From Thermoanaerobaculia bacterium (GTDB taxonomy: Bacteria; Acidobacteriota; Thermoanaerobaculia; Gp7-AA8), in assembly GCA_036498125.1 (NCBI GenBank), contig DASXIH010000165.1, positions 1 through 28,423 on the forward strand: a stretch of 28,423 nt of DNA, given 5' to 3'. Below the pieces are notes generated by a model. The model saw only the letters and a list, made by a program, of their open reading frames with translations, made no database searches and was not told where the DNA came from. Numbering within the stretch: position 1 is the first letter of the stretch; the number at the start of each line of letters is the position of its first letter. Positions 20,534-28,161 of the stretch are shown here, piece after piece. Made by a program: the position numbers and the translations under genes.

Positions 20534-23839
<3,306 letters not shown>

Positions 23840-24228
23840 CAATCACCTCTGATCCGCCGGCTTGTGGATGTGCGGCGAGCGCTCTGAGTTGCTCTTTCCC
23901 GAGATTCAGGTTGCCCATCGCGCAGTGCAAGCGCGCCTTGCGCAGATGTGCGGCGATCGCGTACGCGCCCGTCGGCGCGCATTCGAGGTATGAGGCGAAC
24001 AAGTCGAGGGCCTTGGCGCCTTCACTTTCGTCGTGAGTGCTGAAGTAGGACGTTTCGTACTGACGCGCCGTGCTGTATTGGCCGACGTAGTACGTCTCGT
24101 CGTAACACTGCGGCTGCTGCGGCGGTGGCGTGAAGGGGATCGGTGGCGGCGTGGAAGGCGGCGGTGGCGGTGGCGGCGGGGCTGACGCGCACGCCGCCAG
24201 GAAACCGGCGAGGACGGCGGCGGCGACC

Positions 24229-24978
24229 CTACCGCTCGAGAAACTCATAGCCTTTCTTCTTTGCGACCGCTGCATGTGCGGCCTTGACGGCCGGCAGGAG
24301 GTCCGCCGCCTTCACGAAGTACGTGGTCCCGTTCCATTCGCCCTCCGCGTCCTGGACCACGCTGACGACCATTCCGATGACGGTCTGTTCCGCGGAGAAA
24401 ACGGGTGAACCGCTGCATCCCGGCAATGCAAAAGCATCGGTAGCCGCAAGATTCTTCCGCTCGCGGAGGACACCAGCGCCTGGCGACTCTGTGTTCCATT
24501 CCAGGAGGTCGCCGGGCGTGACCATGAGGCGCGGCCGCCCGTACGGAACGTCGGGAAAGCCGGTGATGAGCAGCGTTCCTCGCGGCGGTGGGGCGGCGTC
24601 GGGGCGGAGGCTCACCCGCGTCTTGGGTGCGTTCGGGAACCAGAGAACGGCGACGTCGCGGTCCGGGCTCGCGTACACGACGGCGCAGCCTTCGTAACGG
24701 TTCGCCGCCGTCGACCAACACTGGACCGAACGAGCATGCGAGCCGTCTTCGTACACCACTGTATGCTTCGCCGTCGCAACGAGGTTCTCATCGACGACGA
24801 AACCGGTTCCGTACTCGAAATCGTCACGCACCAAGCCGCTCGCGTCCTTCAGCAGCTTCGTTCCCTTGTACGCGCGTACCTTGATCACACTTCTCGCGGC
24901 GGCGTCCATGACGTCCGCCTCGCGCGCGACTGATGGACTCAGAAGAATGCTCAGAACGATCGCGGCTCGGAGGTTCAC
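24229..24978 (-). CDS. Exported trypsin-like serine protease (S1), 249 aa
   Basis: Signal peptide; GTGFVV, TAKHTV (His), DRDVAVL (Asp), LPGCSGSPV (Ser), VIGMV; GTGA overlap with the upstream gene. Confidence 0.88.
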   Translation of the reverse strand: MNLRAAIVLSILLSPSVAREADVMDAAARSVIKVRAYKGTKLLKDASGLVRDDFEYGTGFVVDENLVATAKHTVVYEDGSHARSVQCWSTAANRYEGCAVVYASPDRDVAVLWFPNAPKTRVSLRPDAAPPPRGTLLITGFPDVPYGRPRLMVTPGDLLEWNTESPGAGVLRERKNLAATDAFALPGCSGSPVFSAEQTVIGMVVSVVQDAEGEWNGTTYFVKAADLLPAVKAAHAAVAKKKGYEFLER

Positions 24979-25412
24979 GGTGATGTTCCGCCGAAGCGGG
25001 CGATCACCTCATCCGCATAGTCGCGGTACCGGCGGATGTTCCGTTTAGAGCCGGAGACGACCTTGAGCATCTTCGTGTTCTGGAGTGCTTCGTCACACAC
25101 CTCACGAAGCTCGCGTGCGCTCTTGAGGATCTCGTCATGGGACACGCTGTCGTCAAGTGGATTCAGCGGATCGCCGTTTTGCTGACTCTGCTCGTGGATC
25201 TCGATGTCGTGCTTCACCGCTTGTTTCAACGACGCCAGCCGCTCCTGCACGTCGCGGTAGGTGCTGCGTTGTGCGCGCACGAACGAGCTCGTGGTCTTTC
25301 GCCGATGATGCGCGTGCGTCGTCGGTTTCTGGACATACGTCACTCCCGGCACGCACTTCGCGGCGATCAATACGAGCGCAAGGGGCACCAGCCAAAGCCG
25401 CCGGCTGAGCAT
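24975..25412 (-). CDS. Exported or membrane-anchored helical hypothetical protein, 145 aa
   Basis: SD AGGAGG before ATG 25412; MLSRRLWLVPLALVLIAAKC (Cys present, non-canonical lipobox); amphipathic helical body. Confidence 0.7.
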   Translation of the reverse strand: MLSRRLWLVPLALVLIAAKCVPGVTYVQKPTTHAHHRRKTTSSFVRAQRSTYRDVQERLASLKQAVKHDIEIHEQSQQNGDPLNPLDDSVSHDEILKSARELREVCDEALQNTKMLKVVSGSKRNIRRYRDYADEVIARFGGTSP

Positions 25413-25488
25413 TTGCTGCCTCCTTCTGACTTGTCGGACCCGGAGCGCGCAGTTTATCGCAGGCAAGACGCGGTTTGCACGTAGGGGC

Positions 25489-25494
25489 TACACT
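25489..25494 (+). promoter_or_regulatory. Putative -10 element of a leaderless transcript
   Basis: TACACT, 6 nt (GTTCCG), then ATG 25501; no SD. Confidence 0.6.
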
Positions 25495-25500
25495 GTTCCG

Positions 25501-25851
25501 ATGGCCATCACCGGCGCGCACTCGGTCATCTACTCGAAGGATGCGGACGCCGACCGTGCCTTCTTCCGCGACGTCCTGAAGTTCCCGTTCGTCGACGTCA
25601 ACGACGGCTGGCTGATCTTCGGATTGCCGCCGGCCGAGGTTGCGGTGCATCCGAGCGAGGAAAACGGCGTGCACGAGTTCTTTCTCATGTGCGACGACGT
25701 CAACGCCTTCGTCGCCGAGATGAAATCGAAGAACGTTCCGTGCGGCGAATTGCACCAGCAGCCGTGGGGAATGCTCGTGCAGCTCACATTGCCGGGCGGC
25801 GGCAAGCTCGGGGTGTATCAACCGCGCCACGCGAGACCACCCGCGGCCTGA
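25501..25851 (+). CDS. VOC/glyoxalase (extradiol dioxygenase-like) family protein, 116 aa
   Basis: HSVIYSKDADADRAFFRDVL, FFLMCDDVNAFVAEMKSKNV, QPWGMLVQLTLPGGGKLGVYQP. Confidence 0.88.
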   Translation: MAITGAHSVIYSKDADADRAFFRDVLKFPFVDVNDGWLIFGLPPAEVAVHPSEENGVHEFFLMCDDVNAFVAEMKSKNVPCGELHQQPWGMLVQLTLPGGGKLGVYQPRHARPPAA

Positions 25852-25853
25852 TT

Positions 25854-26105
25854 TGACGCGGTTCATGCCATCGTAGGCATGACTCACGTCAACGAAGTAG
25901 CGACCCGCGCCAAATTGGGCCGATCGTGCCTTTCATTGGCGTCGGTCGAGCCATGGTTGACATATTTCATGTCAGTGATGGCGTATCTCAACTCAAAATG
26001 ACCGACTGTTGATGTAATTTGAAACGACTCGCGCCTTTGATGACATGAACCATGCCATCAATGGCGTACCTGTCGCCATTTTGACGCATCCGTCGCTCAT
26101 TTTGA
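25854..26105. promoter_or_regulatory. Array of repeated operator-like sites
   Basis: Three 27-bp modules with consensus TGACRY-N5-ATGYCA-N4-WGGCRT start at 25854, 25958 and 26041. A second motif, GTCG(N)YCATTTTGA, occurs at 25993-26006 (reverse), 26072-26084 and 26092-26105. Confidence 0.7.
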
Positions 26106-26111
26106 TAGACT
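26081..26111 (+). promoter_or_regulatory. Putative sigma70-type promoter with long spacer
   Basis: TTGACG (26081-26086), 19 nt, TAGACT (26106-26111), then 7 nt to ATG 26119 (leaderless geometry). Confidence 0.5.
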
Positions 26112-26118
26112 TCGCATC

Positions 26119-26490
26119 ATGGCTGACAGCGTTGACACCATTTCGGACCTCGCCACGCGCATCGCCGATATCCGAAGCCGTTTGCGTGACCTCGAAGCCG
26201 AGCGAGTGGCACTCCGAAGCGAGCTCGATGACTGTACCGCCCGTTTCACACGCCTGACGACCGGCGTCTATGAGCCGACGACCGGCTCCTCTCAGATCGA
26301 CGTCGAGATCGTCCGCCTCTTCCGCCAGTATCCCGACACGTTCTTCACTTCTACCGATCTCGCATCGCACCTTCGCAAGCGAAACTGGTCGAATATCGAC
26401 GGCGCCTACCTCCGCACCAAGCTCGCCCGCCTCGCCAAACGCGGCGTGATCCGGCGGGTGGGGCATGGGCGGTACATGGATAAGGGCTAG
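26119..26490 (+). CDS. Coiled-coil plus winged-helix putative DNA-binding protein, 123 aa
   Basis: Heptad region LATRIADIRSRLRDLEAERVALRSELD; C-terminal FFTSTDLASHL...YLRTKLARLAKRGVIRRVGHGRY, a wHTH recognition helix plus wing of AbiEi/Rok style. Confidence 0.75.
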   Translation: MADSVDTISDLATRIADIRSRLRDLEAERVALRSELDDCTARFTRLTTGVYEPTTGSSQIDVEIVRLFRQYPDTFFTSTDLASHLRKRNWSNIDGAYLRTKLARLAKRGVIRRVGHGRYMDKG

Positions 26491-27278
26491 TCGCCGACCA
26501 GCGAGAACGGATCGACGCGCGCTCCCTGGACGCGCATCGCCCAATGCAGGTGCGGAGCGGTGACGCGGCCGGTGGCGCCGGAGAGGCCGACGAGCTGGCC
26601 GTTCTTCACGATGTCCCCGCGCTTTACGTCGATCCGCGAGAGGTGCGCGTACAGCGAATAGATGCCGAGGCCGTGGTCGACGATCACGGTGTTTCCGGTG
26701 AAGAAGAGCGGCTTCGCGAGAACTACGCGGCCGCGATTCGTCGCATGCACCGGCGTCCCTTTCGCTGCGTGCAAGTCGGCGCCGGAGTGCGGCGCGCGCG
26801 GCTCGCCGTTGAAGATGCGTCGTGATCCGAAGTTCGTTCCCGTCTCACCCGGAATGGGAACCGAGAACGGCTCATCGGGAACGATCTCGCTGGTGATCCG
26901 GCGGTAGATCGCGCCGACTTCTTTGTTCTCGCGGGCCGACCGATCGATGGCCGCCTTGCTCAACTCGACGAATTTCTCCGCGACCTGAAGCGGCTGCGTC
27001 GGATACTTTTTCGCCTCGACGTCGATCGTGATCTCGCGCCGTTCGACGCGCCCATCCGCCATCGCCATCACCGCCTCCGCCTCATGCGCGCCCGGCTTCG
27101 CGTCGAGGTCGACGCCGAGGATCGTGGCCCAGCCGTCGCCCGCCCGAAACGCCGGGACGGATTTCTGCAGCCACATCACATGCACCGACTTCACGCCCGG
27201 CTCGTTCGGCACCCTCACCCGGACGGCGCTGCCTTGATGTGCGGAGAAGGCGAGTACGGCGAAGAAGAGAGGGATCAT
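26487..27278 (-). CDS. M23-family metallopeptidase, 263 aa
   Basis: PHSGADL (HxxxD), GNTVIVDHGLG, LYAHLS, TGRVTAPHLHW (HxH); signal peptide. Confidence 0.93.
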   Translation of the reverse strand: MIPLFFAVLAFSAHQGSAVRVRVPNEPGVKSVHVMWLQKSVPAFRAGDGWATILGVDLDAKPGAHEAEAVMAMADGRVERREITIDVEAKKYPTQPLQVAEKFVELSKAAIDRSARENKEVGAIYRRITSEIVPDEPFSVPIPGETGTNFGSRRIFNGEPRAPHSGADLHAAKGTPVHATNRGRVVLAKPLFFTGNTVIVDHGLGIYSLYAHLSRIDVKRGDIVKNGQLVGLSGATGRVTAPHLHWAMRVQGARVDPFSLVGD

Positions 27279-27681: not shown

Positions 27682-27867
27682 ATGCAACCGAGGGCCGAGG
27701 TGACTCTCATCGCGCTGGATGGCGAAGAGATTTTCGAAGTCACTCCGGAACTGAAAGCCGTTCTTCTGGAGTCCATGGCGCAGGGCGATCGTGGCGAAAC
27801 CATTTCGGGTGACCAACTGCTTCGGGAGTTGCGTAGCCGCTTAGGCCCATATCAGCTCGCGACATGA
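27682..27867 (+). CDS. Small acidic antitoxin-like protein (ParD/RelB-type C-terminus), 61 aa; no cognate toxin present
   Basis: ...LLESMAQGDRGETISGDQLLRELRSR resembles the toxin-binding tails of ParE/RelE-partner antitoxins (recognition, not search); TACAAT lies 9 nt upstream. Confidence 0.55.
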   Translation: MQPRAEVTLIALDGEEIFEVTPELKAVLLESMAQGDRGETISGDQLLRELRSRLGPYQLAT

Positions 27868-27926
27868 ACGCCCGTGAGCGGAGATCGTATGACACGCTTG
27901 AAGAAGATACCCAAGTTCAAGGATGA
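27840..27926 (+). pseudogene. brnT: 3' remnant of a BrnT (DUF497) toxin gene
   Basis: Alternative frame reads LRPISARDMNARERRSYDTLEEDTQVQG*, the typical BrnT C-terminus (R.ISAR.M...ER..Y), overlapping the brnA ATG. An in-frame TAG lies two codons upstream and there is no start for a full-length gene. Confidence 0.8.
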
Positions 27927-28161
27927 AGACGCTGAGCGAGAGTTCTGGTCGAAGGCGGATTCGACCGAATACATCGACTGGTCGGAGGCGCAGAAGCTCG
28001 TTCTTCCGAACTTTCGCCCTACGCTTCGGACGATCTCGCTACGACTGCCCGAGTCGATGATCGCGGAGCTGAAGCTTCTTGCGAATCAGCGGGATGTTCC
28101 GTACCAGTCGTTGCTCAAGGTCTTTCTCGCGGAAAAGATCAAGGAAGAGCGATTCAAATGA
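27889..28161 (+). CDS. brnA: BrnA/CopG-family antitoxin, 90 aa
   Basis: IPKFKDEDAEREFW...DSTEYIDWS...TISLRLPESMIAELKLLANQRDVPYQSLLKVFLAEKI, with a C-terminal ribbon-helix-helix. Confidence 0.88.
   Translation: MTRLKKIPKFKDEDAEREFWSKADSTEYIDWSEAQKLVLPNFRPTLRTISLRLPESMIAELKLLANQRDVPYQSLLKVFLAEKIKEERFK

Follow-up and report, generated by a model that had tools for sequence, protein, structure and literature searches.

A small coiled-coil/winged-helix gene behind a 21-bp, two-turn lattice of half-sites in a Thermoanaerobaculia genome: a candidate autoregulatory locus

The window, a stretch of 28,423 nt of contig DASXIH010000165.1 from a Thermoanaerobaculia bacterium (assembly GCA_036498125.1; 4.6-Mb genome, hereafter G000), carries on its plus strand, at 26119-26490, a gene termed here gene X, which codes for a 123-amino-acid protein with a coiled coil and a winged helix-turn-helix (wHTH) domain and is flanked by a glyoxalase gene upstream and a convergent M23 peptidase gene downstream. 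The 267-bp gap in front of gene X (25852-26118) has a guanine-plus-cytosine (GC) content of 50% versus 65% for the window, in agreement with the hand counts of an earlier note on this DNA (26/60 at 25981-26040 versus 41/60 at 1441-1500). Specifically, the pattern TGACRY-N5-ATGYCA-N4-WGGCRT occurs in the gap without mismatches at 25854, 25958, and 26041, with 0.00 matches expected in 100 dinucleotide-preserving shuffles, so that the three modules described in that note are where it placed them and are not random. The distances between their starts, 104 and 83 bp, correspond to 9.9 and 7.9 turns of the helix. Judged from sequence, the locus is a degenerate and weak representative of its family, whose small proteins resemble autoregulators and are paired with arrays phased at two turns.

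Each module is a section of a 35-40-bp palindrome with four half-sites; the three half-sites first read in each are real, although that reading truncated a longer palindrome on a 21-bp lattice. Module 1 (25853-25892, no strand assigned) reads TGACGC-N5-ATGCCA-N4-AGGCAT-N5-ACGTCA with spacers of 5-4-5 nt, is centred at 25872.5, has 17-nt arms that are 82% complementary, and matches the pattern on both strands. Module 2 (25950-25984, no strand assigned, centre 25966) has the perfect core TGACAT-N5-ATGTCA and the outer half-sites GCCAT/ATGGC with spacers of 4-5-4 nt, the same spacing as in module 3 (26030-26067, likewise unstranded), which reads GCGCCT-N4-TGACAT-N5-ATGCCA-N4-TGGCGT, has 16-nt arms (88%), and places the centre of its N5 dyad 70 nt 5' of the ATG. 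The full unit of 6+5+6+4 nt adds up to 21 bp and thereby gives the half-site lattice its 21-bp period. The half-site ATGNCAT is palindromic on its own, and the alternating orientation of the half-sites, to which the first description drew attention, therefore carries little information. Downstream of the modules, two lattice copies of the motif CATTTTGA stand 21 bp apart on the plus strand (26077 and 26098; 26077-26105), the first of which overlaps a -35-like TTGACG (26081-26086), and a putative extended -10 element, TG-A-TAGACT (26103-26111, plus strand), proposed on the basis of its conservation, ends 7 nt before the ATG. Array, core promoter, and the first ~15 codons make up a putative regulatory unit (25850-26165, plus strand) that is kept as a whole, with a ~80% identical copy on contig C556, the only other place in the 4.6-Mb genome where the pattern is found.

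The strict three-half-site pattern is absent upstream of all other homologues examined, including the 76%-identical orthologue in G001, a genome of the same genus; the expectation that homologues would share the grammar thus fails for its exact form and holds for the half-sites, the dyad types, and the phase. An unbiased count of words over 11 upstream regions is headed by CATGTCA/TGACATG, CATGCCA, and AATTTGA (z 17-20; z 14-20 for the set CATGYCA/TGACAT and AATTTGA). AATTTGA is enriched in the orthologues with z = 17.7 and, in every one of them, keeps one constant phase within the 21-bp rows. Moreover, two types of dyad, ATGYCA-N4-TGRCAT and TGRCAY-N5-RTGYCA, were scored with the two discovery sequences set aside, and in the remaining nine, all from outside G000, both exceed their frequency in shuffles, with 11 N4 dyads observed versus 2.3 and 17 N5 dyads versus 5.3. 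Measured from the ATG, the thinned dyad centres of these nine sequences occupy a single phase of the helix (R = 0.88 at a period of 10.5 bp), and a scan of periods peaks at 10.5 bp, with values of at most 0.4 away from 10.25-10.75 bp; the nominal Rayleigh p of 2e-7 for this phase is overstated because the sequences are related. The helical phasing noticed in the window is hence conserved in independent orthologues, and the N5 dyad centre falls at -70/-71 in seven of the 11 sequences. The orthologue group to which the window belongs has a degenerate unit of roughly C-AATTTGA-N12-C, the last copy of which forms the extended -10 element, and the TGAC half-sites of the three modules are the lattice motif of the group. 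A further half-site lies inside the coding sequence: at 26131-26143 of the window, and at the same conserved codons (5-9) in orthologues, which encode V-D-A/T-I, there is a TTGACAC/ATGCCAT-type half-site in phase with the upstream lattice, and several orthologues have, at about +17 to +23 (within codons 5-9), an ATGCCAT half-site that a hand count places 84 bp from the one at -64. The N-terminal peptide may be constrained at the DNA level.

The promoter elements are shared well beyond the window. The sequence TGATAGA is present in nine of the 11 upstream sequences, the distance from the end of TTTGATAGACT to the ATG is 7 nt wherever the sequence was read out, and most paralogues have TGnTAnnnT ~7 nt before an ATG or GTG with no evident Shine-Dalgarno sequence. 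Among the family genes of loci L010-L036, too, nearly all have TGnTAnnnT about 7 nt before the start and lack a Shine-Dalgarno sequence. Because an extended -10 lies so close to the start codon and no Shine-Dalgarno sequence is evident, the arrangement suggests a leaderless mRNA with a predicted transcription start at the start codon, and leaderless expression looks like a trait of the family. A scan for canonical sigma-70 promoters finds none here, since the spacer between the extended -10 and the -35-like TTGACG is 19 nt.

The two-turn lattice is a property of the family at large. When 6-mers (at most 1 mismatch) from the 270 bp upstream are autocorrelated, lags of 21, 42, 63, and 84 bp are the only ones to give peaks, with z = 21.6, 11.4, 17.0, and 19.9, respectively, for the orthologues and z = 82.6, 62.0, 54.9, and 51.3 for 22 paralogue loci from several genera; 30 of the 35 family loci have a more than 5-fold enrichment of 21-bp periodicity. 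Many paralogues carry 9-14 direct repeats of a unit of their own (for example GACATAGnAGTnTGTCGCGnT, TnTCATGCGAATGAAnnAGTG, and CGnAAnGCGTGCAnnnnTGCA), stacked in 21-bp rows from the start codon, up to ~14 units, and these arrays continue into the promoter. Three metagenomic members served as an independent check: such an array recurs in a distant one (35% identity), is moderate in another, and is missing from the third. In a matched control, the upstream region outscores every other window of its own locus at 25 of the 32 family loci, and 69% of the loci are above the 99th percentile of the genome. At the window locus itself the lattice is visible mainly in the positions of the dyads. The repeat units track the protein clades, which fits cognate recognition of each unit by its protein. 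An origin of the arrays as in-frame coding repeats (21 bp being seven codons, or one heptad) was considered and rejected, as the upstream in-frame open stretch has a median of 20 codons, only four of 33 arrays are fully open, and the GC content at third codon positions is 0.36-0.73 in the arrays versus 0.67-0.89 in genes.

Arrays of this period are not restricted to the family. A genome-wide scan of G000 detects 276 windows with strong 21-bp periodicity and 49 substantial near-perfect arrays of 5-27 copies, built from ~45 different units, that are mostly non-coding and located beside unrelated genes, none of them on a contig with a family gene (examples are C362:2576-3151, C143:1511-1904, C286:4381-4730, C334:2874-3203, C493:3254-3517, and C9:7806-8203). 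Three of the 49 loci share GGCGGAGGTCCTGACGNGCGT, and about 15 of the 49 may be coding heptad repeats. With 49 arrays and only four family proteins in the genome, 21-bp arrays are a habit of G000 and not exclusive to the family, and the suggestion of a new system made in the earlier note has to be qualified to that extent. The array of gene X might then be one of the self-generated 21-bp repeats of the lineage (REP-like or produced by slippage), unrelated to a protein that regulates elsewhere or binds DNA non-specifically, as the abundance of such arrays and periodic windows by unrelated genes would allow; such an origin is nonetheless unlikely, given that the association between family and array is strong under the matched controls, that the arrays end in register with the promoter, that the half-site sequence and its -70/-71 position are kept in orthologues despite diverged spacers, and that the modules are better conserved than the spacers.

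The last point derives from the second copy of the array. The segment 25850-26165, including the first ~15 codons of gene X, is duplicated at 781-1080 of C556 on the minus strand, in the opposite orientation and at ~80% identity; the similarity begins right after the stop codon of the glyoxalase gene and stops at ~26165, and the flanks are unrelated (30-46% identity). In the copy the reading frame ends after 20 codons and is followed by a PTPS-related membrane-protein gene, while Holin-X and DUF3618-like genes lie on the other side (locus L004). Identity between the window and C556 copies is 89% in the modules and 70% in the spacers (Fisher p = 0.0016); module 1 is 93% identical to its counterpart, and the core of module 2 is 89% identical, with outer arms altered symmetrically in C556 to yield a perfect palindrome with 16-nt arms. 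The half-site in codons 5-9 may explain why the first codons were retained in the copy. In G002, the orthologue of the membrane-protein gene on C556 lacks an upstream array, and the copy is for this reason read as a lineage-specific duplication; a test for a co-evolving trans-regulon failed on the same observation, and no orphan array copies were found for the other three G000 paralogues. The symmetric double substitutions that distinguish the window and C556 copies of modules 1 and 2 look compensatory and, together with the three long palindromes and two weak terminator-like matches, could indicate that the palindromes act as hairpins of RNA or single-stranded DNA (within a structured non-coding RNA, or as a terminator or attenuator that follows the glyoxalase gene) instead of protein sites. 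This is very improbable: an Rfam scan of 25400-26600 returned no family, only a chance snoRNA match far below threshold, module 1 is not followed by a T-tract, the half-site words and the lattice phase persist in orthologues whose palindromes differ, and most paralogues carry direct and not inverted repeats.

The protein encoded by gene X has 22 invariant positions in the alignment of its homologues, centred on YxRTKLxRLA...GxGRY. AlphaFold2 run on the orthologue alignment returns a model with a predicted local distance difference test (pLDDT) score of 89, consisting of a helix at residues 2-48 followed by helices at 56-70, 78-87, and 95-107 and a beta wing at 111-121; the wHTH spans 56-121, and the protein ends 2 residues past the wing. 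Folding of two copies yields a homodimer score of 0.60 versus 0.02 for the best control, a value attained by 21 of 30 proteins whose solved structures are pairs of one chain and by none of 23 whose structures are single chains, and the modelled interface pairs heptad positions 4-47 of both copies in a parallel coiled coil, so that homodimerization through the N-terminal coiled coil is supported by modelling. Foldseek searches of the PDB and the AlphaFold Database retrieve generic winged helices only (Fur, Zur, BlaI, DpnI), and the likeness to the silencer Rok that had been suggested proves equally generic, with the Rok DNA-binding domain (PDB 5ZUZ) at rank 17 (E 0.066, template-modelling score 0.47), behind all four of these; a profile search against PDB sequences gives coiled-coil noise alone. 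At the sequence level, the window protein matches Pfam AbiEi_4 (PF13338) with E 5.5e-4 and 20.4 bits, below the cut-off of 25; AbiEi_4 is also the Pfam model matched most often in the family (12 of 44 members, best E 4.7e-7). The score with NCBIfam TAA_AbiEi, for which the cut-off is 150 bits, is 15.5 bits, and the PADLOC AbiEi models match all six family members tested (E about 1e-4 in five and 7e-3 in one). The N-terminal domain of AbiEi thus appears to be the closest sequence relative of the wHTH, while the AbiEi C-terminal domain is missing from the window protein and no AbiEii/DUF1814 toxin gene is adjacent.

Gene X is not the orphan it was first taken for. Its closest homologues, at 51-76% identity, come from soil metagenomes and from metagenome-assembled genomes of Thermoanaerobaculia, mostly at a matching locus, and a profile search of 1.84 billion representatives gathers 132 clusters at E <= 1e-3, nearly all of 110-140 amino acids and aligned over their full length. 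Within a set of 400 genomes from the class, family matches occur only in family f1, in 11 of its 96 genomes and often several per genome, and the phylum-wide profile search yields only marginal partial matches outside f1 (its sample includes the unpublished genome G042, with one marginal match, on which no claim is based). The order guaB - (variable) - glyoxalase - X - (variable toxin-antitoxin genes) - M23 peptidase is conserved in six or more assemblies or contigs other than the window, and since relatives keep this order, gene X is a chromosomal, vertically inherited gene. The four minus-strand genes at 23009-25466, which include one for a trypsin-like protease, are absent from G001, where guaB abuts the glyoxalase gene, and the block is, on this comparison, a lineage-specific insertion; the conserved glyoxalase gene separates gene X from it, and the placement of gene X at the edge of an accessory region does not hold. 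In the window nothing separates gene X from the M23 peptidase gene, and the two convergent genes overlap by 4 nt (26487-26490); in the relatives L011, L045, L046, L047, and L049 the equivalent slot is filled by differing genes of toxin-antitoxin type (RelE-like, Unstab_antitox, MazE-PIN, DUF433), which makes it a hot spot for insertions. Further downstream, at 27682-28161 of the window, an open reading frame of 61 amino acids without a Pfam match precedes a gene for a CopG/BrnA-type antitoxin (PF12441, E 4e-31); no toxin open reading frame was seen there.

No conserved partner gene, whether for a toxin, an NTPase, an enzyme, or another function, is found beside the family gene at the 27 loci compared, and the earlier description of a coiled-coil plus wHTH protein without a partner is borne out by the fold model, the dimer model, and this comparison. 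The same loci bear on the proposal that the array and its binder form a nucleoprotein structure that works like a centromere, as an anchor or insulator, or as a roadblock to replication or transcription, any effect on its own transcription being a by-product. In its favour, 10-14 in-phase sites over 250-300 bp exceed the needs of simple autoregulation, the layout resembles the parC/ParR, tubC/TubR, sopC/SopB, and omega heptad arrays (PMC4627068, PMC3074150) and iterons (PMC4980987), and genomes hold several paralogues with distinct units, like incompatibility groups. We regard it as improbable all the same, as no NTPase of the ParA/ParM/TubZ type or other conserved neighbour accompanies the gene, the locus is chromosomal and syntenic, and the window array is degenerate, with three modules only.

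The reading that we prefer, and consider somewhat more probable than not, is autoregulation. The 123-amino-acid protein would be a sequence-specific dimer in which a parallel N-terminal coiled coil holds two AbiEi-like winged helices, and the ~270 bp before gene X would be its own predicted multi-site operator. The two-turn, 21-bp lattice would place all bound dimers on one face of the DNA, where they could touch and fill the lattice cooperatively, and, as the lattice also covers the extended -10 element and the opening codons of what is probably a leaderless mRNA, its cooperative filling would shut the promoter. Negative autoregulation would thus result from occupation of the promoter-proximal units and of the site at +20, and the diverged array copy on C556 may have brought the membrane-protein gene under the same control. 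Both binding and repression are predictions from sequence and find a precedent in the wHTH antitoxins of the AbiEi type, which autorepress via inverted repeats (PMC7319586, PMC3985639).

Several observations weigh against negative autoregulation. The G001 orthologue, at 76% identity, has a much weaker array; by the direct-repeat measure, the window's own locus reaches only the 88th percentile of the genome; and two sets of motifs, the dyads and AATTTGA, share one lattice. A lineage-wide repeat-making process independent of the gene X family exists, the co-variation of units and proteins could be mere co-inheritance of gene and array, and the symmetric double substitutions between the two copies would also fit a constraint on hairpins. 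Lastly, modules 1-3 are located upstream of -52, a position that suits activation as much as repression, and the circuit might hence be one of positive autoregulation or of a concentration-dependent switch from activation to repression, in which RNA polymerase is brought to the weak promoter with its 19-nt spacer by dimers that sit on one face at -70, -153, and -246, and the filled promoter-proximal sites then repress. The recurrent dyad centre at -70/-71 is a class-I-activator-like position of the kind established for CRP, and the promoter is non-canonical. A switch of this kind is made by omega-2 on heptad arrays (PMC4627068). We consider activation or a switch quite unlikely, as the arrays of the paralogues run continuously into the -10 element and favour occlusion. 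A more ambitious extension of the autoregulatory reading is that the loci are self-contained cassettes of an array and its reader, in which dimers polymerise on up to 14 in-phase sites into a ~300-bp filament with a role beyond autoregulation, tied mechanistically to the dozens of other 21-bp arrays in these genomes, as an undescribed DNA-organising system of soil Acidobacteriota; this is doubtful, and within it the filament would serve as a heritable on/off switch, a chromosome anchor, an insulator or roadblock, or an incompatibility-like identity tag.

On its own, the window locus would be a modest example of an autoregulated transcription factor. If the protein reads the array, the family would provide a compact natural set of orthogonal protein/operator pairs, with one fold, many specificities, and a strict two-turn spacing, useful for studying the co-evolution of winged-helix specificity and cooperative filaments and as parts for synthetic circuits; the protein would also be a candidate partner for at least some of the 21-bp arrays that crowd, so far without explanation, the intergenic DNA of soil Acidobacteriota not yet in culture. 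Literature searches found no published description of the gene X family or of its array layout, and the nearest known systems each share a part of it.

Rok of Bacillus subtilis binds AT-rich DNA broadly and is not known to use phased arrays before its own gene. Together with the archaeal nucleoid proteins of the Lrs14/Sso10a type, which combine a wHTH and a coiled coil, it resembles the gene X protein in joining an oligomerising helical part to a winged helix within a small protein that has AT-rich targets (PDB 5ZUZ; PMC11841832); conversely, Rok has no sequence relation to the gene X protein, and its fold matches no better than that of Fur or BlaI. AbiEi, the antitoxin of the type IV AbiE toxin-antitoxin system, has the wHTH that appears nearest by sequence and autorepresses through inverted repeats in its promoter (PMC3985639, PMC7319586), whereas the window protein has an N-terminal coiled coil in place of the AbiEi C-terminal domain, lacks an adjacent AbiEii/DUF1814 toxin gene, and belongs to a family whose loci carry a far longer phased array of sites.

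Omega of the inc18 plasmids (pSM19035) and the ParR/parC, ParG/parH, TubR/tubC, and SopB/sopC pairs are small dimers that act cooperatively on short direct or inverted repeats, including those at their own promoter; the same arrays occur at other promoters, as with the copy on C556, and unit specificity varies between relatives (PMC4627068, PMC3074150, PMC9499535). The family shares with partition systems the repeat array in front of its own gene and, at the 27 loci, has no ParA, ParM, or TubZ gene adjacent; omega, ParR, and ParG are ribbon-helix-helix proteins with units of 7-11 bp, in contrast to the wHTH, the coiled coil, and the 21-bp period of the gene X family, and the locus of gene X is chromosomal and syntenic, with no partition NTPase gene next to it. 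Iterons and the Rep proteins of theta plasmids (P1, F, pPS10, RK2) come close in geometry: there, winged-helix proteins bind direct repeats of ~19-22 bp that follow each other every two turns (PMC4980987). Rep has two winged-helix domains and is twice as long or more, whereas the gene X protein has one wHTH in 123 amino acids, and gene X is inherited vertically next to guaB, outside any plasmid context. Iterons overlap the rep promoter and thereby bring about autorepression (PMC4980987), and the arrays of the gene X family likewise reach the -10 element.

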